A stretch of 64,000 nt of DNA from assembly GCA_973895155.1 (NCBI GenBank), contig OZ316893.1:10359660-10423659 (forward strand), given 5' to 3'. Each line of letters starts with the position of its first letter. Within the stretch, counting starts at the first letter, position 1. The notes beneath the pieces were generated by a model, which worked only from the letters and a program-made list of their open reading frames with translations, did no database searches and was not told the origin of the DNA. This DNA comes from Marsupella aquatica. Lineage: Eukaryota > Plantae > Marchantiophyta. This document shows positions 33,014-64,000 of this stretch, piece after piece. Made by a program: the position numbers and the translations under genes.

Positions 33014-36000
33014 AATGCATATGTTGAGCCGGATGTTGGGGTGTTACCACGAGCTATGCGCCAACACCTTGTGCAGGCCATGGAAGATTGGCGACATGCC
33101 TCTCTACCACCAGATGGCGATCCGGATGTTCCAGAGCAGGAACCAGATGCCTCCCAATCAAGAGTTGATGAAGATAGGGCCATGGATGACTTGATGCACC
33201 AATTCTATGACATAGAGGATGGTGATCATGACATGGCTGATGGGGAGAACATTGAGGTCCCACTTCCACATCAAGAAGGTTCAAGGAGTTCAGCCTCCAA
33301 ACAGTGGGAGGAAGCACGTCAACATGCGCAAACTCGGATATTTGATGGATCACGCTTGTCTCGTCTTTCAGCAATAATGTTGTTGTTGAACTTGCAGCAA
33401 AGACATGGAGCAAGCAACCTACTTCTTGATGATCTCTTTCGGACATTGCATGATTGTATCTTGCCAGAAGGAAACAACTTGCCAGACTCTTGGAAAGAGG
33501 CAAAGAAGGTGTTGAAGTCCATAGGTCTGCAGTACGAAGTCATACATGCTTGCGTGAATGATTGCGTTCTGTTTAGAGGCACTTATAAAGATGCAACGTC
33601 ATGTCCTACATGTGAGAAGCCTAGGTATCGTGAGGACATGTTGACGGGAAAAGTTCCTCAGAAGGTCATGAGGTACTTTCCTCTTATACCTCGTTTGCGC
33701 CACCAATATAGATGTGCTGAGTTGGCTGAGTATATGGTTTGGCATTCCCAAAATCGCTCAGATATGAGTTCACAACCACCCACCATGCGCATGATGGTTG
33801 ACTCCCCTACAAACAAGTTTGTGGAGGAGAGATGGGGTGAGTTCCGAACTGACCCACGTCATGTTCGCCTAGGATTGGCAGCGGATGGCATCAGCCCATT
33901 TGCACTAGCAGGTAAGGCCCAACCATATTCACTATGGCCAGTGGTCCTTACTAATTACAACATCCCTCCATGGATGTCCATGAAGAAGGGTCATTTGCTC
34001 CTTTCCATGATTATCCCTGGTCCTAAGCAAGTGAAAAAAATTGATGTGTACTTGCAACCATTGATTGAGGAGCTACAAAAGCTTTGGAGTGGTGTGGATT
34101 GCTATGATGGTCGAGTGCAAACGGGGGGCTTACGTCGAGAATTTAAGTTGAAGGCCATTCTTATGTGGACCATACATGATCTTCCAGGTATGAATCTTTG
34201 TTAAATTATCCCTTCCCATAGCTAGGCAACCGTACCTAGCATACTTTGTTATGTATTGAGTTAGCTAGAAGCACATATATCTTTTAATAAACTTATTTAC
34301 TTATGCATGGGATATATATTTATATGCAGGGTTTGGATATATTTCTGGCCTGACCACATCAGGATATCGAGCTTGCCCAACTTGTGGACCTGATTTGGAA
34401 GGAATAGCGCGGCCAAAGTCAAAGACCTTGAGGAAGATAGTGTATATTGGTCACACCAAGTACCTCCCTCCAGACCATGATTGGAGGAGAGACCCCTTTT
34501 TATATGACACTGAGGATGGCCAACCAGACAGACGACCACAACCTATTCCAAAAGATCCTGCATATTGGAAAGAGGTATGGGAGAGAGTATCTAATCCAGA
34601 TGACCCATTGCAATATGCCTGGTGTGGCATGACTTGTTTGTCTGCATTGTCACAACTGCCTTATTGGGCTGAGATGCCACTTAACCATTTATTTGACCCT
34701 ATGCACATTGAGGGAAATGTTGGGAGGTCCTTGATTCGCCACCTATATGGAGAGAAAGACAACAACTGGAGAGAGAGTTGTGAAGAGATGGGGATGCATG
34801 GCCCTCATGGTTTTTGGCCATCTATGGATCCCGATAATGCCCCCCTTACTATTCATCCTCCTTGGGTTTTGACACGAGGTGAGCGGACCGAGTTTCGCAA
34901 ACGCATAGGGTCTATGCGATTTCCTACAGGGTATGGTGCCAATCTTCGCAAGGCATTTGGTGGACTTGACTCTCCAAAATGGCCAGCTTTCTTGAAGACC
35001 CATGATTATCATCGCTTATTGCAACATGTTATTCCAATTGCTATTATTGGATTGGGTAGTGAGGATCTTCGTGATGCCCTTTGGTCGTTGGGTAAGTTGT
35101 TGAGATGGGTGTGTCAAAAGGAGGTGAACGAGGATGAGGTTGCAGCAATGGAGGTGTTTGGAGTGGAGGTTGTGTGCAAACTTGAAAGGGCCCTTCCTCC
35201 TTCATTTTTTGATGGTCAGGTTCATTTTCTACTACATCTAGTGCGTGAGGTTGGTATTGCAGGCCCTGTACATTGTCGTTGGATGTACTGGGTAGAGCGG
35301 TACATGGGAGTGATGAAGTCCTATGTTTCAAATCGCGCAAGGGTGGAAGGTAGCATTGCAAAGCGTCATCTTGGAGCAGAGAGCATGTTTTATTGTACAA
35401 ACATTATTGCTACACTTGATTCAAATGCTCCAAGCGGGTGGATAGATGAGGCATCAAGAGAAGCAGACTATGAGGATGACCGTTTGACAGGTGCAAAGGG
35501 AGAACGGCTTCTTGACCCTAGTGAGCACACTAAACTCACTGCATTCATGTTGTATAACTCTCCAGAGATTGTTGGGGAGTGGACCACATTTTATGAGGAG
35601 GATAAGCACAATAGTCGACGACCACGCTTATTTCCCAAATTCCACATGTACATGAAGGGGAAGTTGTTAGAAGTGGATGCCTTGGTGGTTGTTGGGGAGA
35701 GTGTATCACACTTCCCAATGGTGACTGATAAGTTGCGCACCTTGGTTCATGGACCTCTACTTACAGTTACAACCAGGACTGCCATGTGGTCCAAGGGGAG
35801 ACACTTTCGTGTGGAACGACTTGATGACAAGAGGGCAGCTACACAAGATTGTGGGGTGATGGGTTGGTTCACCCAGGATTCTGTAAGTAGCAGATCTGAC
35901 ACAAATCCCATCCGTTCTACTATAGCTCACTATGGAAAGATAGAGGAGATCCTTGTTGTAAAATACCATGCGCATACAACATTGGAAGAGGTGGTGCTGA

Positions 36001-36281
36001 AGTGCAAATGGTTTCGGATGAATCTTGTTGGCCACAATCGAACATGTGAAGAGGATGCTTGCGGCTTCACAAGACTGAAGACAGGGGCTGTCATCAGCTC
36101 AAATTGGAGGGCCTCAGATCCTTTTGCATTTCCTCATAATCTTGAGTAGGCATTCTATCTCCCTTATCCAGATGATCCTGAGTGGTCCATTGTAATGCCT
36201 TACATTCCACGATCCCGATCCATAGTCCAAGAACAGCCAAATGTAGTTGTTGTGGAAGATTTGGAAAATGAGAACAACTAG
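33014..36281 (+). pseudogene. CACTA-B TnpD-like transposase (Transposase_21, DUF4218, DUF4216 regions); shares first exon 31601-31831
   Basis: Exons 33014-34187 and 34330-36281. Motifs: IHACVNDC, RHVRLGLAADG, WPVVLTNYNIPPW, HDLPG, DPMHIEGN, KTHDYH, FFDGQVH, RWMYWVER, DPFAFP. One late TAG at 36147. Confidence 0.92.
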
Positions 36282-38459: not shown

Positions 38460-41400
38460 TTATACCATTGTTTGAAGATACTGATCCAAAGCACGTCTAT
38501 CTATTGGATCCAACACATAGATACGATCCATAACCCCTTCTTTCATGGTTAAACTAACACTAGCAATGACCATTTCAATATCCATCCATTTCAAATCAGT
38601 GGTATCATATCTGAATTCACTTTTGCTCTTACCAATAGGACTATACCAATTTAACAACAGTTCACAAATGTTACCTGATTGCCCTGCAAGTGGAGTTGGC
38701 CTATCCATCAAATCAATTGGTGACCGACAATTGCCCCACCTACTGCCATACTTCTGTCTCATTTGGACAATCCGACCCAACCAAAAATATTTCTTACCTG
38801 CTGAGATTGCCTCCACCACAACCTTATTCTTTCCTCCCTTTCTTTTTCCAGATCTAGTACTTGGAGCAGGACTATCATCAGACTCAAATGCAATTGCACA
38901 ATCAGTGCCAACATCAACAAAACATGAGTTAGGATTGACTTCTTGCACTTTTCTCTTGCCAGTACTATAGTATAGCACTTGTTTCACCCTTGTCAGCCTA
39001 TCTTTTGACAAATGCGGATTTCCTACCAACTGGCTTACCAGAGTGGATTTGTAAATCACCTTGCCTTCATAAGTAACAGTAGGCACTACCTTGGTACGAT
39101 TCTGTACATTAGTTACATCATGGACAACTGATCCAAACACATGCCAAACTTCATGACCTAATGTCTCAAGCTCATCTGAGGGGTCTACATCAAACTGTAT
39201 ATCATCTCTGTGTACATCATCTGAATGCATCTCAGGAACAACAATGGGATCTGGTTCTGTTAACCATGCATCTATTCTATTCAGATCATCCTCAGGATCT
39301 TCCAATTCATGAAAATCTCCAGTTGGGCGAGGACCTATGTCTGGTGGTTGGTGCTCTACTTGCTCCTCAGAATCATTGCAAACAATTGCTTCCTTCAGAA
39401 CCACCTCTAGTGGCCAGGTCTCACTTTCCACAACCCAAGGACATGTCCACCATCTCTTTCTAGCTGCTGGTAAGGAACTTCGTGGAGACATCTGCAATTG
39501 ATGCATAAGATCCTTAGCAGCAACAAAACCTTCTTTAAGGGCTGCAACCACTAATTCATTAGTCTCAATGAGAGAATAGTCAAGTAGATTTGGTGCTTCC
39601 TCCCCTTCCCCTATAGGATGAATCTTCCCCCATACATGATCTTGTTTCTTATGTGAACGACCTATCTTCAAGCCTTCTGGTCCATATTCTAGGGCAGCAA
39701 GCCGGTTCAGTCCAACAGCACTATCCAACAGAGAGCCAAAATCATAATTCCGCTCATGGCCACTCATGCCTCCTACCTTGCTGAAGAAAATCTCACAACA
39801 ATCTGAACCTAGCAAGTGGAAGGGAACACCTAGATGTGGGAACTTATCTCGAAAGGCACAAATTAACAGCACAATGAAATGACATGACATGTTAACATCA
39901 TGAAAAGCCTGAATAGACATCATGTCTTTCTCAGTGTGTGCTGCAAAGTTCCCACCCACTGAATGGTCACCAAACCTCAACCACAATCTCCACAAACGTA
40001 GAAAGAATGAAACCTTGGATGCTAACACAATACGGGACCTCAAATCATGAACTGGAGAAAAGAAAATATCTAAGTAATCTGCACAAATCTCCAAGTACAA
40101 CTGAGTTCCTAAACTTCGTTCATGTTGTACATCTCTCCTCTCATACATATCTTTCAGACATTGCTGCACTCTTCTTGCTGCTATTCGTTGTGGACCTGCC
40201 CAATTCTGCCGGTCAGTCCTATTCACATCATCCCAAGCCATGCCATGTTCATGAATTGGATAATGATTGTAGACATTAGCTACATAAGATAAAGATGCAT
40301 GTTGATCTCCTAGCACCAGTAAAGAAGACACTCTGTCTAAGGGGTTTATCATCTTTTTCCCATTATGAGGTTGGTCTTGGTCACCAAAGCCATACAAATC
40401 TCCATTTGGTAGAATTGAAACAGAGTATGTCCACCCTTCCCACCCAACTCCATACCTTGGGTATGATCCATTCTGCCCTCTGTAATCTTCCAGCATCAGC
40501 TTTCGGCGACGTGCATCACCATCACTAGCATGTCCAAGCAAAGGGCCTACCATAGCTCTACAATATTCATCCCAAAAAGCCTTTAACTGGACCCAATGCT
40601 CTCGTACCCAAGAAGCTGTGAACTTATTACAAGTTGGAAGTGCACACACAGCCAATTTAGGTAAGGACTCATGCAGAGGATTCACAATCACAACTCGGGC
40701 ATACATGCACTTGGGGCATTGTTCAAATGTACTTACAATTTTATCATACCCCTCATCACCTTCACCAACTAGAATTTCCAAACCATAGGAGCATACATGC
40801 TGCTCTGAAGGTCCACAGAAACCAATGAGAGTATCATACTTTGCCTCCCACCTGAAACACAGACATGCAATTTTTCAATATCACAGCAATTCCAGCCAAG
40901 TGCTACTTGTAAAGTCATTAAAAAAACAATTGGAAAAATGTCCAGTTCCAATTACCTAGGGCGTTCTTTGATCCTTGTTTCATCCTCAGCAAAGATAACA
41001 GGCACATCCCCCTCAATGCCCAATGAGTGCTTTGCAGCAGACAACACTCTAGCAATCTCCTGAAAGGTTTCCTTCCGTAACCCGGTTCGAAAAGGTGTGA
41101 GTTTTGCTCTATCACGTTTTAGGGTCACAAGGCTAGGGGCTATCAAGTTTCGTGCAAAACAATGAGCAACTTGACGGCCCCCAAATTGGAACATAGCCTG
41201 AGCAATAGCTCGAGTCCTATTACTGTAACGATTACCTTTTGGCTTCCTGCCTAAATTGCGAGCTACATCCTTCAAGAAATCCCACAAACCCTCCTTACCA
41301 CCAAATGCACCATTCCTGTGTCCATTCAAAATACTCCTAAGAAACAATCTCAAATCCTTCCTGTCTGCTGCAACTCCTAACAACTCCTCTAGTTTTCGTT

Positions 41401-43036
41401 TCCTGGTGCTCAAGGCACATACTTTCTGAGCCTGCAAAGCTAACAACCAACGCTCTTTTTGTCGCACAGAGTTCAGGTTGTGCACTTGATCTCTTAACTC
41501 TGTGTTGGTCAAATAATCCAAACGTATACCACCAGCAGTGGTTCGGCTCCCTCTGTGGACTACTGCTTCCGCTTCCCTGTGCACCCGTCCACGAAAATCA
41601 TCTTCTAGTGTTATAGAATCACATTCACTACAAGTTAGATTTTCAAATCCTCCTCCATTCTGTGATAACCTCAAGCAATCCTTGTGTCTAAAACAGCCTG
41701 CTATACTCACAACACTCTCTCTACTTGGATGGAAAACATCCAAGCAACAACTTGGCTCACAATGCCATGTAATTCCCCCAGACTGATCATCTAAAATGCC
41801 AGAAATATCATAAGATATACCCTTCCATAACAGTCGAGGCACACCTCTCTCTACCCATAATCCCCAGCAAAGCAAACTCAGACCAAGATCAACAGATTCA
41901 CACACACCTGAACCTGAACCTGAACTGCTGCCTGTCCGGGACCCATCATCTTTAAAGAACTTCAAAATCCCGCTCTGACCAGGATGTAGGTCCCTAGAAT
42001 CAGTCCTCTTTGGCCTGCCCCTCTTCCCAGACCTCAAGGCAAGCATTTTTGTGTCATGCCTAGTCTCCAATGCATCCAAGTGATCTCGACTCACTAAGTG
42101 TGTCCTCAAATTGGGCTCCAAGGTAAGCTTCTTGGGGCACAAGGCAGTGTGAAGCATTCCACAGACAGTACAGCTAACCTTAAACAGGAAAGACCTGTTT
42201 ACATACTCAGGAGTACTGGGATCAGGAACAATAGAGAATAGTTTGTCATCATCCCCAAGCTCAGCATTCAATCGCTGAACTATCTCAACACCTACTTTGA
42301 TGGCGTCTGCATGATCATATTCTGGCTTCTCAGAGATGTCTGCTACCTGAACCAAAGTAGAAGGAATGCCCCTTCTCCGACAATAGTTATCCTTATGCTT
42401 ATTGAAGACCAAGTGTTTGGTCTTAAAATTACTAAAGCAATTGGAGATGGATTTAGGGTTTTGAGAGTTGTCTGCATTGCCATAAGTTTCCCTACATTCA
42501 AGACACTCCAGATGCCCTCGAACATCTGTCCCCTCATCCCAGGTACGAATTCTCCAATTGTGATCACCATAACCCTTCTTATGTACCCATTTCTCTAACC
42601 TCATCCACTCATCTTTCCATAGCTTTGATGGGACATCTCCCATCAATTGTGACTCAAAAGAAGCCCTTACAGGGGAGGGTGCTAGTGCTGTTGGCCTCAG
42701 TTGTGGTGTCTCAGTATTTGGACCCAATGATGCAGGAGTGCAAGGATGACAGGGTACTGGTGGGATCCTCCCACCATCTCCAAGTTCTTGTTGTACAACA
42801 ATAACTCTTCCATCCAGCTCAGACAGATCAATTAATTTCTCATGTACAAGTTTCACTCGACCAGGAAGTCTCTCATCCCAAAAATCGAAGTCAAAGTCTA
42901 GAGTAGAGGCAATACGAGCCCTAAAATCATGTAGGGTGTGTCCTTCTTTGAATGACAAAACACAGATTGGTAAATCAGCCTTGTCATCCCCAACTTTGCG
43001 TATTAATTTAACAGAGTTGGGTTTAGGGGCTGCCAT
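38460..43036 (-). CDS. Intact ~1490-aa P-element/THAP9-like DDE transposase with N-terminal C2H2-like zinc fingers
   Basis: Exons 43036-40956 and 40851-38460 total 4473 nt with no stops. Catalytic-type motifs: FAEDET, HASDGD, DQPHNGKK (DxxH), DRQN, GSDCCEIFFSK. Two CxxC...HxxxxxH fingers lie N-terminal. Confidence 0.75.
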
Positions 43037-43535
43037 TGCAATACAAATCTAGAACATGCATAGCACCATTGCTTTTGGAGTCGATAACAGAAAGACCTGC
43101 ACAAATACATTTGAAATACACACAAGGGAAACACATTAGGATCTTCAAGAGATGCAATGACAACATACACATTCTCATGTCAGTAATGTACATAATGTCA
43201 GCATACATTTAACAATAGAAGTGCTAATAGGCCAAAACACTTTATAATGCAATCCATCATACATGCAAATGTATTCAGTGAAAATCATGATATACCGTTA
43301 AAGTTGGATAAAATATCTTTAGAAAAAATATCCTTTTTGCCTGGTTTTCTAACAATTCCCGAGGTTTAGTGGTTTTGCTCATCAAAATGCAGCACTATTA
43401 GTGATCGTAATTATGACAAAATGTCAACACTAATAAAATTGGGTACTACCACCCATGATGCAGCTTAAGTATATGCCTTGCTCATACCCCACTAAGACGT
43501 TGAAACCTAAGTAATAGGTTTATTCATTATTCAGA

Positions 43536-44285
43536 TCACTGGAGCCATGAAATGTGGTCCCTGATTGGAGTCTTCAGGTGTGGATCAATAGGATGACGGG
43601 GGCAATAAAACATCTGTCGCTGTTGTCCATGTGCTTCATGTTCCCAGATGTCCCTATCATGAGCAAACCCTTTGCTTTTGATCATCTGGAGACAATCTGT
43701 ATGCCAGGCATTTGGACATCGTAAACATTGTACCATGTTCTTGACCATCTGACCCTCAAGACTCTGATAACATGTCACACATGTATGCAGTGGGCAGGAC
43801 TTTGCAGCAGCTACCAAACACCCAAAGCAATAAAATCGTACACAAAAATGATCAGAGCATTTTCGCACAATTGTAGGTGACGGTCCCACAGTGCGGCACC
43901 CATAACACATGGCCTGGTCCTGGTTACAATTTGGGCAAAACCATGGCTTCCCTCCATGATGGAGGGGAAGGACTACACAGGGGCAAGAGTCATTAGGGGC
44001 TTCATCTCCAACCACATAATGAAATTGCCTGTGACATGGCCCATCACAAATTACCAACTTCCCACCATGCTCACAAATTGCACAAACATGAGGGCTGGTT
44101 TGTAGAATCTCTTGCTCAGAGAACAAGGGAATACACAATACCTCTTCTAAAGAGGACTGTGTTGCTTTCTTTATGTTTGAAGTCCTTGTCGGCATGGTTA
44201 CAACTGAAATCATCACAAAGCACATCACATATGAGAGGGACATGTATGATACTGGGCAATCCATAGAACTTGGAGAAATCCACAT
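43536..44285 (-). CDS. EDM2-like composite PHD-finger cassette carried by the P-like element (start likely ATG 44195 or an upstream exon)
   Basis: CAICEHGGKLVICDGPCHRQFH...FCPNC...CYGC...CPLHTCVTC...CLRCPNAWHTDCL...YCPRHPIDPHLKTPIRDH is collinear with the EDM2 PHD region as I recall it. Confidence 0.8.
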   Translation of the reverse strand: MWISPSSMDCPVSYMSLSYVMCFVMISVVTMPTRTSNIKKATQSSLEEVLCIPLFSEQEILQTSPHVCAICEHGGKLVICDGPCHRQFHYVVGDEAPNDSCPCVVLPLHHGGKPWFCPNCNQDQAMCYGCRTVGPSPTIVRKCSDHFCVRFYCFGCLVAAAKSCPLHTCVTCYQSLEGQMVKNMVQCLRCPNAWHTDCLQMIKSKGFAHDRDIWEHEAHGQQRQMFYCPRHPIDPHLKTPIRDHISWLQ

Positions 44286-44537
44286 TTGAAGTAGTTACAA
44301 ACCTGCTCCAATGATCTGCAAACCTCCCTCCCAGATGAAGTCAACTACACAGTGCAGCCTGGACACCCACCAACCAAGACATACATAAATACAATGCCAG
44401 CTTGCGAAACTTTGCCACATAATGGGAATGAAAATTATTCTCATATATCATGGATGGTACAATTGCAGCCTTGCAAACAAAGGCCTAGTCATCCCGGACC
44501 TCAAGTCATGAACAACGCATCCATGTACTATCAGGGA

Positions 44538-47610: not shown

Positions 47611-50600
47611 TGTTTAGACCCCCGTTTACACCATTTTCTGCAAGGTACAAACAAAAGAGTCTCTCGTCCCAAACAACGGGTGGGGCCAAAGGGATAGTGG
47701 AGGGAAACCACACGGGAGGAGACTGACAAGGGCCAATTGAGGGAAATGAGACATGTTAACGGAACAATTCAAACTTAATCCCGGTCAAACCCTAAACATG
47801 AGTCCCCCAAAACCAGACCCACTTAAATCATTCTCAAATTCTTGCCATGTTAAACATGACTTAGGAAAATATATTGGGAATGTTATGTGTGCCATGTGTA
47901 CCAATGATATAGTGCCACGTGTAATTTACATAGTCCGATTCAAGGACCCCCTAACTTCCTTGTATGCCTTCCATCTACATAGTCAAAAATATTAATATCC
48001 CTATTGTTCTTACAAGTTGTCCAACATATAAAGTCGACCCTATTGTTCTTACACAAATCTTCTTAAGTCTTCCGAGAAACCCAATTAACGGACCCTATAC
48101 TTAGTCGCACGTGATATGAGATTTTCGCGAAGTGAGACCCCCCTGCAGTAGCCAAGACATGGATGATCCCATGGATCTTGCATTTACAGAGGCATGCACT
48201 CCATTGTACGAGGGATCAACAACTTCACAATTAGCTTTTGTGTTGTCTTTTTTGAACATTTGCCACAACAATGGCTTTTCCAATTCGGGAGTGGACAAAC
48301 TCTTGAGTGCGATGGGGGAACATCTTTTACCACCTAACAATTTGCTACCTCAGAACATCTACGCATGTAAGAAGCTGATCAAAAAGGTTGGATTGGATTA
48401 CATTAAGATTCATGCTTGTAAGAATGGTTGTATCCTGTTTAGAGGAGATCAATATAAAGATTTACAATAGTGTTTAGAGTGTAAGGAGCCCAGGTATAAG
48501 CAAGTGGGAAAGTCCAAGCAAGCTGTGAAAGTCCTGCAACACTTTCCTCTTATTCCATGTCTTCAACGGATGTATAAATGCCAACCAAGCTATTTCAAAG
48601 TTGATGACATGGCACAAGGAGAACGGCAGTACTGATGGCATGGTCAGACACGTTGCAGATTCAAAGGCATGGAAGTGGGTGGATAATGAGATTGACAAGG
48701 ACTTTGCTGCAGAACCACGCAACATCCGCCTTGGTTTAGCACTTGATGGTGTCAATCCATTTGGAAACAACAACCTGAAGCATTCCACATGGCCATTAGT
48801 CTTGTTGAACTACAATCTTCCCCTTGGCTATCTACAAAGAAGTTCTTTGTAATGCTGTCATTGTTAATTCTAGGGCCTGAGTCCGTGACAGACATAAATA
48901 TAGATGTATACATGGCTCCTCTACTTGAAGAGCTGTTGGAGTTGTGGAAAGGAGTGAACTGCTTTGATGTGGTAGACCGGCCAGGCAAAGATAAAGTCTT
49001 TACTTTACGAGCTGTGCTTTTATGGACTGTCAATGACTATCCAGCATATGGGCTAATCTCTAGACAGGTGACCAAAGGATATAGAGGGTGTGTTGTATGT
49101 GGTCCTGATGTGGAGGTCCGAAGGTCAAATGCTCTGAGCAAACAGGTTTTCCTAGGTCATCGACGATACTTAAGATTGGATCATACGTACAGGAACATAA
49201 ATTATGCAAAGTATTTCAATAGGAGATGTGAAGTACGCCCGGCACCACAACCAATGACATGCACAGAGAGGATGAAGTATGCAACTGACGTAGAAACTTA
49301 CTTGAAGAAACAAGGGGCTAAATTTGGAAGCAAGAATTGTCCTTCAAAAGTGCATGGAGTGAAGCGAAAGCCAACTCTGACTCAACTACCATACTGGGAG
49401 GTACAATTCTTGGAAGGGTCCATGATGTTTTGATTAATTGATAGCAATTGAAACAATCATGCCACTAAATTGCTTTTCAGTCCTGGCGTTCAGACATACT
49501 TCTAAGGGTGCTAATGTTTGATTTTCTGCAATGCAGAAGCTACTCATCAACCACACCATTGATCCAATGCACACTGAGAAGAATATTTCTGCAAATATAG
49601 TGCACACAATCAGCGGCAGAAAATATACTACAATTGTTCGGCAGGATATGTGTGCTGAAGGCCTTCACAAGAAGCTATGGCTTACTCCACACCCAAAGAA
49701 GGCAGATGCAATGTTAAAGCCCAATTAAAGCTCCTTATGTTTTGAGCCCTGGTGAGTTGATGTCATTCCATGACACGTTGAGGACATTGAAGGTTCCAAC
49801 CGATTTTGGCAGTTCCTTTGCCAAGTGTGTGAGTGCCAATAATAAGTTGGTTGGGTTAAAATCACATGATTACCATCAATTGATGCAGCAGATTCTCCCT
49901 TTAGCCTTAAGAAACCTTCTGGCCACGGGTCCTCGACTAGCTATCCAATGGGTATGCCGGCTATGGCGCAAGATTTGTTCAAAGGGTTGGGACCCATCTC
50001 AATTTGAATCATTGAAGCAGGATGTTGCATTCACTCGATGTGCTTTGGAAATGCACATTCCACCCTCGTTCTTTGATGTAATGACCCATTTAATGGTTCA
50101 TATTGTTGAAGAGCTTGACATTTGCGGCCCTGTAGCTCAAAGGTGGATGTATCCGGTTGAGAGATATCTTAAAGTGTTGAAGGGCTACGTTCGGAACAAG
50201 GCTTGTCCTGAAGCATCCATGGCAGAAGGTTACGCTTTCACTACTACACTATTGGCCCCTTTTGCGAACCCATACACATCGCAATCAACAAAGGCCCGAT
50301 AAACAGAATTCCGGCACTTGCGAACTAACATGCATCGCTACACCATCCCAAATTGCGAAGTTAAAACCTTCGCACGTGGACCATCGCAACGCCATCGCAA
50401 CACCATCACAATTTCCTAACCAAATTCCCTCGCAACTTGTCGAACACTTCCGAGTTCAAAATCGTTGCAAACGCTTCGCATTATGCCGCACGGTCCTTTG
50501 TTACCGATGTTGGTTTTTGTGAAGCTGGAAGGTTCGCTACGTGTTTGTGATGGGAATGAGTTTGATATTTGCGATGTCGTGGGGTTGGCAACTAGCGAGC

Positions 50601-53131: not shown

Positions 53132-53898
53132 AGCTCAATCCCTCTCAGGTCTCTCTCGATCTTCTCCCCGCGGCCCCTTCTCCTCTCGCTCTCCCGATCA
53201 AACAAGGAATGAGCTTGATGCGAGCTCCCGCCGACACTTACGCATTTCAAAAAAACCTCTTTGCGATCACATTCGCATCACAAACTGCCACCCTATTACC
53301 TTCGCAAACAGTCTTGCAACTTGCGATACTTTTGTGAAGAATATACCCTCGCTAATCCATCGCAACCCGTAGAAATGCCCAAAAATTGTTCTCGGCCTCT
53401 GTATTTGCGAAGATGTTGCAAACCCGGGAGGTTCGCAAAATGCATCTCTAATTTGTGAAGCAATTTGCGAGGCAGGTGATCTCGGTTTAGGGTGGGAAAC
53501 TATCCCAGGTGTTTAAACGGCTTTACAAGGGTATGGCCTATTTAAACCCTTTTAACTCAACATGGATTTGTGAATGGCCAATTAGTTTGAAGAAGAGGAT
53601 TTTAGGTTGTAGTTGGGCTTTGTGTTTTTGTTTTTGAATCTTAATTGGGTTCTAATTTAACAAAGGGTTTGAGTTTTAATTTGGGGTTTGGATTTAGAAA
53701 GGGTTTAGTTTAGGGAGGGTTGTGTTTCAATTGAAGGGGTTAATTTGGGTTTAGGTTTTAATGTAAGGGTTGGGTTTGACTTTTCACTGATTTCATATTT
53801 TTTGCTCTATACATATTTCAGTTTAGGGACATGGTTTTAATAGAGGGCTTTAAGTTAGGGTCTAAGGTAGAGGTTTGGGTAAGGTTGTAATTGAGAAG

Positions 53899-54256
53899 TT
53901 TGGGTTAGGGTTTAGGGTAGGGGCTTGATTTTGGTTTAAGTTTAGGGGTTTGGGTTAGGTTTAGGGTAGGGGCTTGATTTTGGTTTAAGTTTAGGGGTTT
54001 GGGTTAGGTTTAGGGTAGGGGCTTGATTTTGGTTTAAGTTTAGGGGTTTGGGTTAGGTTTAGGGTAGGGGCTTGATTTTGGTTTAAGTTTAGGGGTTTGG
54101 GTTTTTTTTAGGGTAGGGGCTTGATTTTGGTTTAAGTTTAGGGGTTTGGGTTAGGTTTAGGGTAGGGGCTTGATTTTGGTTTAAGTTTAGGGGTTTGGGT
54201 TAGGTTTAGGGTAGGGGCTTGATTTTGGTTTAAGTTTAGGGGTTTGGGTTAGGTTT
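53899..54256. repeat. 49-bp tandem array (~7 copies) containing TTTAGGG, within a ~1.1-kb G/T-rich telomere-like tract
   Basis: GGGCTTGATT recurs at 53921, 53970, 54019, 54068, 54117, 54166 and 54215. Confidence 0.93.
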
Positions 54257-55150
54257 TAAGTATAGGGGTTGGGTTCCATTTTAATTCTAAGTTGTGTTTC
54301 ATTTTTAATTGTGGGGTTTGGGTTAGGATTTTTGGGTAAGGGTTTGATACGTAATGAGGGAATATGGATAGGTAACTTAGGATGGAGTTTGAGTTAGGGT
54401 TTAAGGTAGGGGTTTGAGTAAGGTTTTAGCTGAGGGGTTTGGGTTAGGTATTGAATATAGGGGATCGATGGGTTCAATTATAATTCAAGCTTGTGTTTAA
54501 TTTTTAATTTAGGGATTTGGGTTAGGGTTTAGGGTAAAGGCTTCATAGGTAATGAGGGAGTTTGGGTTATGGTTTCAGATGGGGTTTGAGTTAGGTTTTA
54601 GCTGAGGGATTTGGGTTAGGGTTTGAATGTAGCAGTTGGGTTTTTAGCGTAGGGGTTTTGGTTAGCTAGGGCTTTGGGTAAGGGTTTTATATGTTCATGT
54701 TTAGGGTAGGTTTTTTTTCTAATTGAGGGTATGCTTTCTTTATTTCATTAACATGAAGGGGTAGAACACTCTAGGAGTTATAGGGCACTTCCCCATCGTT
54801 TTGAGAGTTTTGGCTAATGCATATGCATTGCGAGAGCTCGGGCATCTGAAAGGTAAAGCTTGTTTTCCTGGCATTTTTTATTTGTACTGTAACTTGAGGG
54901 TCTATCATCCCTTTCTATAGTTTACCATAAGTCATTGCTTAATTCATTGTATATTTGCAGATTTCTCCCTCCTACTTCCAGATTGGGTTCATCAAGTTTG
55001 GACCAAAAGACCTATAGGCATTGCTGAGCCCGGGTCTCATAAAGGTATTTTTTCCTTTCATTTCAGTTTAATATGTCTACTTAGGGATTACAAATGATCG
55101 TTTTAGCTATTTGTTTACTAACTCGCTATTCCAAATCTTCCACTTGCCAG

Positions 55151-56307
55151 ATGTCTTCATCCTCTACAACTTCCCCCACATCAGACTCCTCCTCTGATGA
55201 GGACATAGATCCTCCTCCTCAGCCTGAAACAGCCGCTCGTCGACCTAGTGGTCCACCACGCCAACTTTGCAGTTGTAAAAAATGTGTGGGGATGGTTGTC
55301 CAGAAGTCATATGTATGTGCAGACCATATTTCTCGATATGGACAACATCGAGGTCTTACACCCGGAGCCTCTTCATCCCATACGGTGAGTTGTAAACTTA
55401 CTATGGTTTATTTTTTATTCAATAAATATTGCTAGCATGATAAGTTGGGGAAGTTTACAATCACTTTGTTGGATTTGTTCCCTATAGGTATCTAATAGGC
55501 CTACACCCATGGCACCAGCACCCTATGTTCCCTCACAAGGAGTTCTAGATGCTATAGGCTCGGCCCTTTCACAAGCTTTCCGTTTAGTTGCAGCAGAGGG
55601 AAGTGGTGTTGGGACAGTTCAGGGTGATGGTATTGTTACACGAGGGAAAAAACGGTCTAAAAGGCAACCCAGAGGGGAAGTTGATCAGTACACCTGTAGG
55701 GTTGATGGTAGGTGGGGACCTTGTACATTCACAGGGAAATGTGAACATTCCTATCATAAAGGATTGGAATCCTGATTGCCTTGGTTTGCCATGTGATATA
55801 ACCTATGGTGAGGAAATAGAGGTTTGGGGAAGACATTGGATTGTCAAAAGTTCTACACTAGGGGAGAGACATGGGTATGGAATTTTTTCTTGCCAGGACA
55901 TCATTGTGGATGATATGGGTGGAAAAGGGCGCTCTCAAGATGGACCAACGTTGTTCCCCTATGGTGGACCCATTTACAAGCGAAGACATTGGAACATGCT
56001 CCTTGTACAACACCCTGAGTGGAAGACTTATGCATTGGACATGGATACTTTTGATGGTTGCACTAGGAAGTATAGTGAACAACGTATAATTGATGGTGAT
56101 CCCATCCGTAGTGGAAATATAGCCGGTTTCATTAACAGTACTGTGGGGACCCGGCCTAAGCGTAGGAAAAACTATGAATGGGTTTTTGTTGATGGTCCCC
56201 CTCCAGCACCATATGGGCAGAGATATCATCATGACCATTGTCTAGTTGTAGCTACTAGGACCATCAAGGCCGGAGAGGAGTTGTTTACACATTATGAGTG
56301 GGATTAG
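55151..56307 (+). pseudogene. CACTA-C zinc-finger + SET-domain protein (short isoform); frameshift near 55740, SET domain itself uninterrupted
   Basis: Exon 55151-55384 (CSCKKC...H..YG.H) joins exon 55488-56307. SET motifs: GYGIFS, YGG, NIAGFINS, VATRTIKAGEELFTHY. Confidence 0.82.
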
Positions 56308-56503: not shown

Positions 56504-57704
56504 AATGTGCGACCTAGCCAAGATATGTTGCCAAGGAGGTTGAGAGCTACATATGAAGAAATGGGCATGCCACAAGACGGAGTCACATCATCAACAGATT
56601 CTTCATCCAATGACAGTGACAATGAGGGTTTGGACGAAGGGGCACCTAGGACAGATTTTGAGGTCATGCAGGACCAGGAGACAGCCATGGATGACTTCAT
56701 GACAGATTGGTTTGGTGTGGACGCCCGTGTGGACGTTGATGGTGAAGGACGTGGACCACCCAATGAAGGAGCTCCTCCACCAAATGCTGCACATGACCCC
56801 CGACCTCAACATACACCAGAAGGTCAACAACAATGGGAAGAAGCGGAGGCACATGCTAGAACACCTATTTATGGAGGTGCTCGTTTGAATAGACTCTCTG
56901 CCATCTTGGCATTGATGAATCTTCAGGCAAAACACAAGGCAAGCAATGCCCTTTTATCGGATTTGTTTGCAATTTGCCATGACCTCATGTTACCTAGTGA
57001 CAATGTATTGCCAGGAACTTGGAAGGAGGCAAAGAGAGTTCTATCATCCATTGGTATGGAATATCATATCATTCATGCTTGCGTGAATGACTGCATCCTA
57101 TATCATGAGACCAATGCCAACATAACTGAGTGTCCAATTTGTCATGAGCCTCGATATGACAACAACATGTTGACGGAAAAGGTGCCCAAGAAAGCTGTCC
57201 GTTGGTTTCCCATTATTCCTCGATTGTTGCATATGTATCGATGTTCTGACTTGGCAGAATTGATGGTATGGCATAAGACACATCGATCAGAGGCCGGTGT
57301 CATGCGGTTGTCAGTTGACTCCCCTGCTCACAAGCATGTGGAGGCACAATGGCCAGAGTTTGCACATGACCCTCGTCATGTGAGGTTGGGGTTGGCATCG
57401 GATGGGGTCAGCCCACACTCCCTTGGTGGGAAAGGATGCCCAACATCAGTTTGGCCGGTGGTTGTTATGAATTACAATCTTCCACCATGGTTGTCCATGA
57501 AAAAGGGCTTCTTATTGCTATCATTGATTATCCCAGGTCCATCTAAGGTAAAAAACATGGACACCTATTTGGCACTATTGGTTGGGGAACTCCAAAAATT
57601 ATGGGACGGTGTGTGGGCCTATGATGGTCGAAAAACTACAGGGGGATTACCACGTGTCTTCAAATTGAAGGGAATCAATATGTGGACCATGCATGACTAT
57701 CCTG
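56504..57704 (+). CDS. CACTA-C TnpD-like transposase exon (Transposase_21); remainder displaced by the next insertion
   Basis: Motifs IHACVNDC, RHVRLGLASDG, WPVVVMNYNLPPW and HDYPG end at a GTAAG donor in the same position as in CACTA-B. Confidence 0.9.
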
Positions 57705-58393
57705 GTAAGGGGTATGGATTGGTGTTTTTTTTATGTAATAGAGAGTTTGTTTTAAAAGAAGTCCCTCATATTTATGTATGTACATGAACTTTTTAAATCC
57801 TTTGACTCTAATTGAGAAAATTATTTTGGTTTGAACAAGAAGCCTTAAATGATGAGTAACAAGCCCATACTTTAGGAACTCTAGCCAAAAAATCAGAAAA
57901 ACAACGAAAAAGTCAAAAAAAGTGCAAAAATTAGCACCTATTTTAGAGCAAAAATATGGAGCGAACAAAATATGACATAAACTAGCTATGTTTTGACACC
58001 TAAAAATGACCAAATTCATCTGAAGTTACATTCCACCAATAAATGATCTCAAATACAACACTATTATCTACAATGGTCTCACAATTACACGAGGTGTCTT
58101 TTGAAACAACAACTAAATCACCTCCAAAAGCCATTGTCATTTAAAAACCAGAAAATAAATTACTACAACTTAACCTGATACACATTATTGTGAAAAGAAG
58201 ACAAGGAGAATAGAAATGACACCATCTAATTGAATTGAAACACAACCCACTAAGATAATATTAAACTACAAATTTCTCAAGAAACTTTAACCATGAATTC
58301 ATGAATAAGTGGTAAAGGCATTTTGAAAATTTGTAAATTTTCAAGTTATCCATGTTTTTCAATGGTAATGTCACAAACAATAACTACTTTTCA

Positions 58394-61300
58394 TTACTCA
58401 GATCCAGAAGTCCTCAATTCTTGAAACGAAATATCCCTAGATTTATCTTCTAGCGGGGTTCTAGTTGATCCATTCTCTTGTTCTTGCTCTTTCTCTTCTG
58501 CCAAAAATTCAGTCAATCGGATTTTGATTCGATCTACTGTCTTTTTGTACAATGTATCAGATTTTGTCAACATGAAGTTGTAAGCAAAAACAGTCGTTGA
58601 AGATAAATCAAGCTCTTGGTGAAACCATATTGGTTTCAAAGTTCCTTTCCCACGACCACTTTTCTTCTTTTCGTAGTTTAAGACTTCTGGTAAGTACTTG
58701 GCTTTCCAAGGATCTGACCCGGTTTTTGGAGCATGCCATAAAACATAAATCATTTTTGGAATGTTGAACTCGTCGCGCTGGTCAATTCTTTCCACCTTGG
58801 CCACCCAAAATGTTTCCGATTCTTCTCCAGCAACAGAAATATAAGTGTTGACTTCAAGATCCGAAAAGTCTCCTTCCATATTCTCCTTCTCTGCATCTAT
58901 CTTTCCTTGATTCCGATAAGGACCCACGTATATATCTCTGGTAGGTCCGTATACTCTCTCTTCAATTTCCTCTTCATTGACAAGGACTCTCGGAACTTCA
59001 GCAGCAACAACAATCTCCCTTTGGGAGCGTGGCCATTGAAAAGGGAAAATCAATGGTCTTTGATCAAGGAGCAAAGATTTATTCAATTCCCGTTGCTCTT
59101 CAAAAAACATTCTCCACCAGTTCACTTCCTCTTCTGAGAATAAAGTTTCAACTGCAAGTATTCCCTTTTGAATCTCATTTAACGAATCATCCATCTCCTT
59201 CAAAGTCATTCTTGAAGAACTAGACATATTTGGTTGAGTCCTTGTAACGTTCTTATCCCCCTTTTTGAAAAGGGGTAATCCGGGAGCACAACCCATCACC
59301 TTTTCTGGCTCCTCTTCCCTCAAAAATTTCACGCCTCCGTCAGGTTTCCAAGTTGAGTCCGTGGAAAACTTCTTCCCCCATTGGGTTGGAACTTGATTTT
59401 CCAACTTGTCAAATGCAAATTTGTACTGGTGGTGGAAGGTAACATTTCGAATCCTTTCAATGACTAAAGGTGGATCTGAGAAGGCATATTGACGGAAATC
59501 ATATGTTTCCTTTAAAAGAGTGATATTTGGTTGGGGTTGATATGATTCACAAATAATATCACATAGGCTTTCGTATGTGAATGCCTTAAACCTTGCTAGT
59601 CGTTTAGAAAATCGACTGAACATTTGATCTATTTGGTCGTGTGTGTGTCCAACCAACAAGAATCCTAGTTTGATTTTCCGAAAAACCTTTCTTCGAATCA
59701 ACATATGAAGATAGGCAAAGAGTAAATTATTTTTATTTTCTCTACTGGTATTATCAAGTTGAAGATAGAGAACAGGCGGCAAGCCACCAGGCTTTTCTTC
59801 CCATTCGTGAAACACCCTTTGCAGGATTGTGACTGTCAAGTTTCCATCATTATGCAATACAGTATAATTAAGAAACACTCTTGAAAATAGTGCACCATTG
59901 AAAACCATGCATCCGACAACGTGCATTTGGATCAAACATGTTTCGTCCACCGATTTTGGGGGCCGCGGCCAATGAGGCAACCTTGTCTTCTTCTGATCCA
60001 TCCCATCAATGACAACTCCCAAATATTTATCAGAATTTGAAAAACATTTCTTACGATGCTTCGCGAGTTTCTCACATTCTTTGGATTGTTGGTCTCTATG
60101 TTTTTGTAACATAATTTCCCCTCGCCCTGGAAAAACAACTTGTTAGTTTCTTCAAAAAAAATTAGAAATCATGTGTTAAGCCATATTCTTGAAACAAAAA
60201 CTTGTCAAACTTGTAAGCAACTTACTCTTTTCGGTCTCCGAACAGCTTTGTCCCGAATTGATTTGAACTCCTCGCAATCCGCGCAAGCACTGAATCGATT
60301 GACTGGAGGAATCTTCACATGACCAAATTCTTGAACCCAAACTTTCAAGAATTGTCGATAGGATATTTTTGAAGATTCATCAATCTTGGCATAGTTGGAT
60401 TCGTAGATCTTCCATACCTCCAGCTTTGAATAATTATCCGGTAAATGTGAAACTTCTTTATTTGGCAATGTTTCCACGCGTGTCTCAAAAAACGACCTAA
60501 GCCAACTGACCAAGACTAATCTTTTAACAGATGGAGGGCGTCCAACTGGTTTAGAATATCCTAAGTCTTGGTTGTCTAATTTCAAAATTCTATTTAATCT
60601 ATGATTGCCAACGCAAAATATAAGCTTGAAAGCTTTCCGACAAATACTCTTTTGACCAAACGTGTAAGATATAGTCTGCCTCCCTCCTTCATTTCCGTCT
60701 CGCTTTATAAGCCACTGCAAAGATAAAGATCGATCCTGAGATTTCTGCCTCAAAAATTTAGAACGCGCCTCACGAATTTCTTTTGGAGATAGACTTAGGA
60801 GACAATGACTCTGACAACAGTACTTACTATTTGTTTTCTTGATATCCTCCTCTTTCAACTTTGTTTCACACAAAGTGGCGTTGCTCATACGTTTGTAACG
60901 ACTAGATGCCACCGGAACATCATCATCCTCCCCACTCTCCGAAGACTCGCTTTCATTCGATGATGAAATGGTCACCAACATTTGCTTATGAACATGCCTA
61001 GATTCCAGACCTGCAGCCTTCGGAGATGGAGGCTCTTCCTTCACTCTATGCACCCTTGGAATACCTGGGCGTATTTCAGAAATCCCTCCATTACCGTGTA
61101 GGGACCCTTTCAATATTTTCCTAGGGTCCCTCTCCACCAGGTTGGTTTCCCTGTTTGAGTTTCCGTGACTTGATCCGCTCCCTGCCCCAACACCATGACT
61201 CCTAGGTAAAACTGAGGAACGCACATTAGAATTATTTTCTGGAATACTTTTCAATAACACTGGTCGTCTAGTTTCTTCCCTCATCCCCCTGTGAAATGTT

Positions 61301-61791
61301 TCCGACGTTGGCTTACCAAAGGTTTTACTTTTTGGCATTTGCTTCAGCCGCTGAACACTTTGCAGACTGCAAAAATCTCTGTCATTTTCCCCACTTAGTG
61401 CCTTCTTCGTCTTTCCAAATCCAGTCTTCATGAATTCATGAGACCGTTTCCCAGACATCCAAATAGGCATTGAACCTTCCAGATTACTCCCCAATTTGTC
61501 CTTTGTTGGTGACAAAGGAGATACAACTTGACGTCCAGGGGGACCAATACTCTCCAAGGAGTCAGAGGAGCTCCCTGACCTCTCTTTACCACCGACCAAT
61601 GATTTCTTCCCACTAATTGCAAGTCGTAAAGGACTACGTTTTAACTTGCTCATAGGGGTGGGGGGTGGCATATCTAAAACAATAGTTATTCCAGGGATAT
61701 CTGGGCCAACCACTGTGCAGGGGCCATCCGGCAATGAAACATCATCAGAAACTCCATCTGAATAATCATCTGATTCGTAACACGCCGCCAT
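58394..61791 (-). pseudogene. Sola-like / DUF7869-type DDD transposase; apparent 1-nt frameshift near the intron (60225-60127)
   Basis: Motifs: CCQSHC, CRKAF, CADCEEF, IDGMDQ, QLDNTSRENKN, FLLVGHTHDQIDQMFS. The donor after 60226 and the acceptor before 60126 are out of phase by one base. Confidence 0.72.
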
Positions 61792-62348
61792 TGGAAAAAC
61801 TAGTGCAAATTGACAAGAAACTCAGAAAATCAGTAAAATCTAACAAATGTTCTCAAAATAATGACCAAGAGTCATGAATAAACGAGCCTATTTATAGTTT
61901 TTCATGGATTGTTGGGACTTTTTAACTTCAAAAATATCAAATATTCATGAAATTTGCAAGCTTTTTCCCGTTAATACCCCGAAATATTCATGAATAATTG
62001 GCCCAAAAACATTGATTTATCATGATTCTGGGTTAATTTTACTAAGTCGCGCCTGATCCGTGATTAGTATGTATAACCAAGGAACACGGGGCAGCCCATT
62101 CATTTTCACTCAATGTCATTTGGATTTCCTTTGTAAAAGAGTGAAAAACAATCTCGCTATCCAATTTCGTGCCATTTTCAGCACTCATCGGCGACGTGTC
62201 GCGAGTTGTCGCGGTCGCACTTCATTTCGACCCTGTTTTAGGTAGTAATTTAGGCCCTGGGTGATTTCTTCACGTCACCCCCCTCCGAACCCTATTTTAA
62301 ATACCCTTCTGCATCACCGAGGTGTACAAGCAAAGAGAGAGGAGACTC

Positions 62349-62405
62349 CCTTCATGAATTCATGAAGGTCGGAGCGAGAGGGAGACTCCCTTCATGAATT
62401 CATGA
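62349..62405. repeat. Duplicated palindrome: CCTTCATGAATTCATGAAGG (perfect, 20 bp) plus a second copy 40 bp downstream
   Basis: GGAGACTCCCTTCATGAATTCATGA occurs at 62341 and 62381, in the divergent promoter region. Confidence 0.85.
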
Positions 62406-62570
62406 TAGGAGTCCTGGGGTGGCCGAGAGCGTTGTTAGATCCGTAAGGACACGGTTTTAGTAGCCATTTGTTGGCACATTCCTTGGTTCTGTGGCACTTT
62501 GTCTCGCAGGTTGGGGTTGAAGTGGACTGATTTTGTGGTATGTTCTCAGGTTTGAAGATCAGGCAAAAAC

Positions 62571-64000
62571 ATGACAATGTCGTAGGAAGAGCTGGTGGAT
62601 GACATCTTTTCGCGCCATCCTTTGACGGACTTCCACAACTCATCCTGGACGATTTCCTTAGGGATGGAAACATGGAAGAAGCCCTTCCTAATGCTGTGTG
62701 TATTTGAGGGGCTTCCATCGGGGGCATTAGGGTGGGTAAATTACGGCCGCATCGATGTATTTCGACGGGGCGACGAAGTTGTGAACATGTTGATCACAAC
62801 GAAGGAAACATCAACTTTGATTGTCGTGGATGTGGAGAGGTTTTCTGGAACGGCTGCCACCTGCTATCTCGATGAGGACATCGATAGCATCATTGAGACT
62901 GTCAAGTCTCTTTCGAGTGAGGAACGTTACCACGACGTCGTGGGAAAGATTTCCGGTTTTGTGTTTGAATTTCACGCTAGCACTTTAAAGAGTGCAATCC
63001 GAAAATCAAGAGAGATTCTCCGGAAAAGGTCGGCAGAGAAGGGAGTAAGTCGTCCACCCAAATCTGGGGCTTCCGGTGTTCCTTCTGGATCGAGGCCTAG
63101 CATTTTACCCGATGATATTTTGACCGTGGTAGCGCCTACAACCTCCCGGGAAGCAGCAGCATCTGGAGGGGGATCTCAAGTTGGCAGATCATCCCAGGGA
63201 ACGGCTTTGACTGGTGGGTCGGCACAAGGTACGACTGGAACTCGCATTTCTTCAAAGAAGCGACCTGCTATGACTCCTGAGCCTACCGAGCCCAGTGCTA
63301 CAAAGTCAAAAAAGAAGACTTTGGAGAAAATTCCAACGCATTTGGAGCAAAAGGCTCAATCAATGTCAATGGATGCACGGGTATTGTACCAGGAGGAGAT
63401 TCTGGGAAGATGTGGTGTTCAAGAGGAGACCGTGACCGTTGACATTGGTCAACTTTACCCTCCAGTGAGAGAGAAGGCTGTGGGCTTGCCCATTTACCAG
63501 GTCCGACACATCCAACCATATTTCTTGACCCAATTGACCTTGCGGATGAAGACTGTAGGTGCCAGTCCACTTGCAGCTCCGTTTGTCCTCTTGGTGGATC
63601 CGAAGGAGTGTGCTACTAGGCAAGACTTTGATTTTTCAAGGAAAGCTGATTACCATTATTATGTGATTGGGGGCAACCATTCAGCCTGTGCCAAAGCAGA
63701 CCTTGCTCTTCAGTTCCCTAACAACAAGGCATTTCGGAGAGTGCAATCTTGGATATTTGCGGGATTGAGTGTGCAAGAGGCAAGAAACCTTGCGTGGAGT
63801 CACAATATTGATTCTGAATTTCGACAACAGATGACGACAATCCAGAGAGTAAATTATATTCACATGAGATTTGTTGAGAATGGATTGTCGTCCAACCAGG
63901 ATTTCAAGAAAGAGTGTGCTACTGAAATCAATCTCAAGGATTGGGGTGTACGAAAGGATGCTGAGGTTCTTAATGCCAATGATAACCTATTTCAGTTGGC
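62571..64000 (+). CDS. Long ORF running off the window with a ParB/Srx-like domain (absent from the supplied ORF track)
   Basis: ATG at 62571, TAG at codon 5, then >470 open codons (next ATG 62664). Reads VDIGQLYPP...YQVR...PFVLLVD...YYVIGGNHSACA...LSVQEARNLAWSHNID...MTTIQRV. Confidence 0.65.

Follow-up and report, generated by a model that had tools for sequence, protein, structure and literature searches.

The window analysed here, 64,000 nucleotides of the liverwort Marsupella aquatica (contig OZ316893.1), ends at its 3' side inside a Sola-type DNA transposon whose insertion target was a CACTA element. The transposon carries two divergent genes, a transposase on the minus strand and an accessory gene on the plus strand, and the accessory protein is predicted to contain a ParB/Srx-fold domain that in several of its relatives is followed by a predicted DNA methyltransferase. 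The features on which the argument rests are listed below.

56504..57833, plus strand: host CACTA/En-Spm Tnp2 transposase gene (PF02992, E 4e-38), interrupted by the insertion
57838..64000, no strand: left part of the two-gene Sola-type DNA transposon, from contig comparison (all bins covered, 4 of 4 sequencing runs)
58290..58305, no strand: palindrome copy in the stretch from the left end to the transposase stop, from a motif scan
58394..60126, minus strand: transposase exon 2, which holds the DUF7869 catalytic core and the C-terminal part and ends with the stop codon at 58394-58396; 41% to homologue P0161 of Riccia sorocarpa
59627..60007, minus strand: candidate DDD triad, IDGMD (60007), QLDN (59755) and GHTHDQID (59629), invariant in 8 of 8 aligned transposases
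60127..60225, minus strand: transposase intron of 99 nt, GT-AG, donor GTAAGT, acceptor TTTTTCCAG
60226..61791, minus strand: transposase exon 1 (low-complexity N-terminus, Cys-rich region); 51% to homologue P0171 over 234 residues, E 4e-74
60241..60242, no strand: 1-nt deletion that shifts the frame immediately ahead of the intron; covering contigs have one more base here in 4 of 4 runs
61427..61442, no strand: palindrome copy in the 5' part of the transposase coding sequence
61792..62570, no strand: divergent intergenic region, 779 bp between start codons, candidate bidirectional promoter
62351..62406, no strand: pair of 16-bp palindromes, TTCATG-AATT-CATGAA(T), at 62351-62366 and 62391-62406, 40 bp apart, candidate operator
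62571..64000, plus strand: 5' part of the accessory gene (N-terminal domain of no Pfam family, low-complexity linker, ParB-fold domain, helical domain)
62583..62585, plus strand: premature TAG in this copy; the contigs covering 62583 read C for T in 4 of 4 runs
63396..63830, plus strand: predicted ParB/Srx-fold domain, from a structure model and two fold searches
63495-63506, plus strand: Box I-like YQVR within that domain
63669-63683, plus strand: Box II-like GGNHS, with Ser in place of the ParB Arg
63804, plus strand: conserved Asn within that domain

The element and its two genes

The initial annotation, made from the sequence of the window, had the element begin at 58394, and we place its left end 550 bp further left, near 57838, uncertain by a few bases (57834-57839). 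Contigs placed on 57760-58060 have in common a 38-nt contig, 57838-57875, with unrelated flanks before 57833 (runs X2, X3 and X4), and contigs of the host element diverge into other sequence past 57828 and 57833; the element was therefore inserted into the CACTA element, its left terminus falling at about 57838, and the insertion looks like one that hit an intron of the host Tnp2 gene. The shared left terminus reads AGAAGCC. Sola1 elements make a 4-bp target site duplication (TSD) with an AWWT/AWDT bias (PMC3845634) and the TSD of Ectocarpus Sola1-1_Ec32 tends to end in A (PMC12477816; here and below, published work is cited from the accessible parts of each source). The four bases that stand before 57838, AACA, do not fit AWWT, at a boundary uncertain by a few bases whose right-hand counterpart lies outside the window. 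An inverted repeat (40103-40133 with 57851-57881, 71%) was considered as a pair of terminal inverted repeats (TIRs) and rejected, the boundary being at about 57838 and the genes pointing the other way.

In run X1 the long contigs across both genes have a depth of 484-586 (about 550), and flanking or divergent contigs have a depth of about 17-19, which suggests a family of some 30 near-identical copies, a rough figure since contig depth is no copy number. A 1821-nt contig departs from the window at 7 letters and 1 gap, so the copies are closely alike and their expansion looks recent; the element is apparently young and multi-copy. The observed/expected CpG ratio is 0.67-0.83 within it against 0.40 in the host CACTA frame, a contrast that we do not count as evidence of protection because age alone can explain it. 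The first 56 bases of the left end (57838-57893) are also common to a second repeat family that then diverges (X1 record 5, depth 49; X3 record 20), which may represent some copies' right end, or else a non-autonomous family related to the element.

The transposase occupies two minus-strand frames, 60205-61821 and 58394-60142. DUF7869 (PF25273) matches 58397-60142 at E 4.2e-51, bearing out the Sola/DUF7869-like assignment made initially, and three invariant Asp accompany this match, as in a Sola-type DDD transposase. The motifs DGMD, QxDN and GHTHxxID are what we take to be the Sola1 signature, and their invariance points to a putative catalytic role for the three Asp motifs. The frameshift reported between the two frames is a genuine 1-nt deletion at 60241/60242, but most of the break is the GT-AG intron: the similarity of four homologues (P0171-P0174, found with a frame of the metagenome locus L002 described below) ends at the intron position in 4 of 4 cases, and the Riccia protein P0161 fits the spacing of the spliced transposase. 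Removing the 99-nt intron alone does not restore the frame, the extra base at 60241 being needed as well. A non-canonical donor at 60221, which would change frame without any mutation, was rejected, as all four runs carry the extra base and the canonical donor then fits.

The accessory gene was described initially as a plus-strand open reading frame of more than 470 codons without a stop, diverging from the transposase across about 780 bp. We find an open frame of 471 codons (62586-63998) that runs out of the window, with an ATG at 62571 and the two start codons 779 bp apart; all the ParB-pattern peptides quoted for it are present in frame. The region between the genes is likely a bidirectional promoter. 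Sigma-70 promoter matches were discarded, two being found against 1.7 expected. The TAG at 62583 is confined to this copy or its assembly because 4 of 4 runs read C there, and since contigs drop rare variants a lesion of the copy is indistinguishable from an assembly error in this case. The view that the copy is decaying thus holds for the window, where the TAG and the deletion both stand, but not for the family: both are absent from the contigs of all four runs. The window copy is damaged and the family looks intact. Stop codons were also seen in two metagenome loci: in L001 (627-635) a TAG stands at the same codon position after ATG-TCG as in window 62577-62585, and in L002 (2851-2853) a TAG falls within the ParB domain; both would fit deamination of a methylated C in CAG context.

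Five metagenome loci with relatives of the accessory gene were recovered (L001-L005), and they allow the linkage of the two genes to be examined. In L002 a minus-strand frame starts about 1.0 kb from the start of the accessory gene, head-to-head as in the window. Its N-terminus is identical to the window transposase at 15 of 21 residues (E 5.7 when taken alone), and P0171 serves as a bridge, with 63% to the L002 frame over 230 residues and 51% to window exon 1. The linkage suggested by the initial annotation is thus seen again, in one of two testable loci, as L002 shows it, L004 is without it and L001, L003 and L005 are too short for the test.

The predicted ParB/Srx-fold domain and the methyltransferase of its relatives

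Searched from 63360 onward, the domain has 151 relatives at E <= 0.001 among 1.84 billion representatives, and the named sources among 30 relatives checked are Chara, Riccia, Calypogeia, Adiantum, Ginkgo, Exaiptasia, Ptychodera and Holothuria. A structure model built on 102 of the 151, the longer and better-covering ones, reached a predicted local distance difference test (pLDDT) score of 94 and a predicted template-modelling (pTM) score of 0.80. The initial annotation had proposed a ParB/Srx fold, to be checked with Foldseek, and the top Foldseek rows are all Noc or ParB (E 4e-5 to 5e-4). A VIA fold search of 48,161 chains agrees: its best eight rows are all of the ParB/Srx fold, including PadC (Z 9.4, root-mean-square deviation 3.7, 130 aligned), KorB (7.8), SerK (7.4) and Srx (6.9), against at most 4.8 for unrelated rows. 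The distal domain of the accessory protein is therefore predicted to have a ParB/Srx fold. The family DUF6551 matches 5 of the 102 aligned rows weakly (best E 0.003). The helices that follow (160-212) lie within the KorB and PadC alignments, which extend on the model to 211 and 195, and gave no match to a helix-turn-helix (HTH) family. Pattern scans with the domain alignment returned no relatives among 38 candidates from viral contigs or 13 from prokaryotic genomes, and tblastn gave none in phages, searches that are insensitive at such distance.

The domain is conserved at G104, G105, H107 and N149 (at least 90%), and 59 of 68 rows have Arg at position 49 (Box I). The Box II column after GGxH holds Arg in none of the 102 rows (Ser in 60, Thr in 11, Gly in 8, others in the remainder); its register we take from the GxxRxxA pattern and not from a structural alignment, and the Ala position of that pattern is Ala in 87 of 102 rows. 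The GxxR arginine of ParB CTPase clamps is thus lacking throughout. In tested binders, replacing the Box II Arg by Ala abolished nucleotide binding (10.1101/2025.10.10.680097). The suggestion that the protein be assayed for binding and hydrolysis of cytidine triphosphate (CTP) is weakened accordingly; both activities appear doubtful because the Arg is replaced in 102 of 102 rows.

The initial annotation anticipated that a methylase might follow beyond 64000. The window copy ends there, and such a domain is present in its relatives. Ten of the 11 closest homologues extend about 140 residues further and end at F-x-x-W-V, an exon end. L001, L002, L004 and L005 run on into sequence matching the methyltransferase region (beta-class DNA) of homologue P0040, and L003 stops inside the ParB domain. 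Spliced at two GT-AG introns, L001 forms one open frame of 781 codons with GGNH, DIPY, QKP and the S-adenosylmethionine (SAM) motif DxCxGxGT, and L002 spliced likewise has the same motifs with one internal stop, DIPY being found in these two closest loci. Of 29 homologues selected for their length, 7 match PF01555 above its cut-off and 1 more does so below it. A full-length model of P0053 (pLDDT 80) best matches CcrM, M.BceJIV, M1.HpyAVI and M.RsrI (E 1e-11 to 1e-8), which are beta-class N6-adenine enzymes; N4CMT is also among the matches. In P0040, DIPH aligns with DPPY of RsrI. The beta-class hallmarks, motif IV before SAM motif I together with a fold match, are seen in the relatives only (L001, L002, P0040 and P0053). 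The methyltransferase part is about 25% identical to phage methylases, which names no donor. In animal homologues (P0120, P0141/P0168 and P0064, from Ptychodera, Holothuria and Exaiptasia) the ParB-like domain is kept and motif IV is degenerate.

After removal of 29 rows shorter than 120 residues, a tree was made from the other 73 of the 102. It groups the window protein with the L001 gene in a starred clade of 17 rows, and most of the remaining clades include rows that bear the methyltransferase, so the fusion is likely for the window family too. We infer that the gene of this family very probably continues into the methyltransferase past 64000; extrapolating from L001, the domain would be expected about 0.8-1.4 kb past the end of the window.

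Candidate operator and proposed mode of action

The pair of palindromes upstream of the accessory gene has counterparts 42 bp apart in L001 and 40 bp apart in L002, so that such a pair precedes this gene in 3 of 3 elements that are 67-68% identical in nucleotides over their best coding stretch. L002 has two further copies in the region of the transposase gene where the window has one, and one palindrome lies in the same methyltransferase intron in L001 and L002. The full palindrome is TTCATG-N4-CATGAA with AATT, CTAG or ATAT/ATTT as its centre. Its core, CATG-N4-CATG, occurs 4 times in the 6.2 kb of the window element (0.12 expected), 3 times in L001 (0.06 expected) and 6 times in L002 (0.12 expected), the expectations coming from 300 shuffles each (maximum 1). 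These counts are post hoc because the palindrome was chosen after viewing the sequences. Elsewhere in the window, over 57.8 kb, the core is found 3 times where 1.5 would be expected. Of 13 spacings of the CATG dyad tried, N4 alone is present, save one N12 in L002. From its sequence and placement, the palindrome is a candidate operator.

Based on these data we favour, with some reserve, a self-addressed methylase: an accessory protein that would bind the palindromes of its own element, methylate nearby adenine and so regulate the element. The protein would be a single chain of ParB-fold domain, helical domain and beta-class DNA methyltransferase, which would dimerise through the Arg-less ParB fold, and the dimer would bind the TTCATG-N4-CATGAA dyads of the element, placing the methyltransferase to modify adenine at or near the divergent promoter. 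The parts of this proposal differ in strength. The ParB fold probably serves as a dimerising scaffold and not as a CTP switch, and it is rather likely that the helical domain or the methyltransferase reads the palindromes. We lean slightly towards an active enzyme that makes N6-methyladenine (6mA), a product suggested by the Asp with which motif IV begins. The mark would most likely help the element to stay expressed despite host 5-methylcytosine (5mC); that either the methyl mark or the protein on the DNA leaves the divergent promoter open to use in the face of 5mC silencing, and does not repress it, is a tentative suggestion to which we give rather less than even weight. More speculative, and in its full breadth unlikely, is that Chara, liverworts, a fern and Ginkgo share with marine invertebrates an old family of transposon-borne adenine methyltransferases, of phage-like origin and steered by an Arg-less ParB-fold dimer on a 16-bp parS-like operator, which would act as self-addressed anti-silencing devices, provide land-plant genomes with an enzyme that makes site-specific 6mA and have been recently active in this host.

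Several observations weigh against the proposal. The window copy is cut at 64000 before any methyltransferase, and the right end of the element, where a TIR and a TSD would be expected, lies beyond that point. The Foldseek TM-scores over the query are just 0.35-0.45, and sequence searches of Pfam, PHROG and PDB gave no ParB match for the domain. The head-to-head layout is found in just one of five loci, L002; L004 has no transposase in 2.7 kb upstream and about 4 kb downstream and lies among retroelement fragments. Motif IV is mostly D-[I/F/A/L]-P-Y (DIPY, DFPY, DAPY, DLPY) and not DPPY, and is degenerate in P0120 and P0141. The palindrome counts are post hoc, as said, and no enrichment was seen in L003, L004 or L005, all three outside the close group.

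Four other explanations were weighed. The best of them, which we nonetheless consider unlikely, is that the ParB fold is still a nucleotide switch, using its His and Asn to bind ATP or another ligand and gate the methyltransferase, as proposed for phage ParB-methyltransferase fusions. Conservation of GG-x-H, Asn149 and Arg49 indicates that the pocket is under selection, and orphan ParB folds bind ATP or GTP, yet the tested binders needed the very Box II Arg that no row of this family has (10.1101/2025.10.10.680097).

Somewhat less probable is an accessory protein that binds the palindromes with a dead or read-only methyltransferase and works without methylation, as a repressor, a synapsis helper or an anti-silencing shield. 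The replacement of the first Pro of motif IV in most members, its decay in P0120 and P0141 and a ParB domain that is already without its own Arg would all agree with this. Against it, Asp, Pro-Tyr, QKP and DxxxGxGT are kept in Chara, Ginkgo (DIPH) and metagenome members, the canonical DPPY is retained in P0148, P0169, P0170 and P0194, and active methyltransferases with NIPY or NLPY exist.

We regard as improbable that the palindromes are sites of the transposase or of a host transcription factor and that the methyltransferase acts broadly on host DNA or on unrelated sequence. Subterminal repeats are commonly bound by transposases, and the palindrome is found both at 450 bp from the left end and within each of the two genes. 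The paired copies are, however, deep in the element and upstream of the accessory gene in all three elements, the intron copy recurs in L001 and L002, and a 16-bp dyad fits a dimeric reader of the ParB type, parS itself being 16 bp (PMC8494293).

Chance neighbourhood of the two genes, as nested or adjacent unrelated repeats, can be practically dismissed: the right end is beyond the window and no contig among those listed spans both genes, but L002, about 67% identical in nucleotides over the conserved part of the coding sequence, repeats the layout, the palindrome is common to both genes and the X1 depth is similar over both (484-586).

Neighbouring sequence and comparison with known systems

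The rest of the window is repeat-rich plant DNA in which three CACTA Tnp2 genes, the interrupted host gene among them, accompany one NB-ARC/LRR gene and one Spb1/FtsJ gene. Liverworts supply the nearest named relatives, Calypogeia fissa (64%) and Riccia sorocarpa (41%).

7049-9712, plus strand: NB-ARC/LRR resistance-type gene
12057-17614, minus strand: Spb1/FtsJ ribosomal RNA methyltransferase gene
23547-24419, minus strand: frame with an RNase H1 N-terminal (Cauli_VI) domain
33014-36146, plus strand: CACTA Tnp2/DUF4218 transposase gene
38463-44294, minus strand: frames of 804 and 698 codons without a Pfam match, behind a frame with NSD-like PHD fingers
48747-50299, plus strand: CACTA Tnp2/DUF4218 transposase gene
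53640-54720: telomere-like repeats (T-rich GGG, 49-bp period) extending over about 1 kb, upstream of the SET frame
55588-56307, plus strand: frame with a SET domain (PF00856, E 9e-6, a little above the cut-off), immediately preceding the host Tnp2 gene (56504-57833)

The SET frame of the host CACTA element is a possible chromatin-modifier cargo gene, and the region 38463-44294 is possibly another cargo-bearing transposon. GGGTTT-rich sequence is also what the host-element contigs continue into at the insertion site.

The existence and the source of 6mA in land plants are debated. If the enzyme is active, the element would provide land plants with a transposon-encoded writer of 6mA (or N4-methylcytosine, 4mC) and a naturally targeted methyltransferase. 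The family offers testable material, namely an apparently young element present in many copies with intact alleles among them, relatives that yield a complete gene model, and a specific 16-bp candidate site that diverged elements have in common, and the family-wide replacement of the Box II Arg may illustrate how a ParB fold is reused in eukaryotes without the CTP switch.

The design has published counterparts in algae, whose accounts, as far as accessible, propose self-binding and self-modification without naming a site. The closest is Sola1-1_Ec32 of Ectocarpus, a 21.5 kb element with an opposite-strand gene for a 1104-residue protein that joins a ParB-like domain to an N4C/N6A methyltransferase and is proposed to bind and modify its own element (PMC12477816, 2025). 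A Sola-type transposase and an opposite-strand ParB-like and methyltransferase gene are common to both, the layout being seen in the window and L002 and the fusion in L001 and L002. The likeness is one of design and not of sequence comparison; the brown algal element has AACCG termini, unlike the left end AGAAGCC of the land-plant element, and its account names neither a binding motif nor loss of the Box II Arg in the text consulted. In Bostrychia, Plavaka (EnSpm) elements likewise carry a PF01555 methylase gene and a ParB-like gene (the accessory genes PAG2 and PAG3), with inverted-repeat arrays beside the ParB gene proposed as its binding sites (10.1101/2025.02.11.637652). They differ in transposase superfamily and in having separate genes, with ParB fused to a 2-oxoglutarate (2OG) oxygenase and the methylase to SET. 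Supplemental Table 6 and Fig. 13 of that account may describe similar motifs.

The predicted fold, the following helices, the Box I-like Arg and the Box III-like Asn resemble those of the CTP clamps ParB, Noc, KorB and PadC, whereas Box II reads GGxH[S/T] without Arg, there is no ParA and the gene is eukaryotic and intron-containing. The joining of ParB to PF01555 recalls the ParB-N6_N4 methyltransferase fusions common in phages, and ParB-HTH fusions of another methylase class have been described (Iyer 2016, PMC4738411). MpDN4MT1 of Marchantia and N4CMT of bdelloid rotifers (PMC8885841) are likewise prokaryotic-type beta-class amino-methyltransferases in eukaryotes. These two are host 4mC enzymes without ParB, the former (TSPPY) with no extra domain and the latter with a chromodomain, unlike the accessory gene, which is transposon cargo with a ParB fold and an Asp-type motif.

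No description of such an element in land plants was found in the literature searched, Repbase being outside the search. The element is a land-plant case of a published, experimentally unproven design, in which methylation and binding are predicted, and what is new here is its land-plant range, the family-wide loss of the Arg, the signs of recent activity and a concrete candidate binding site.

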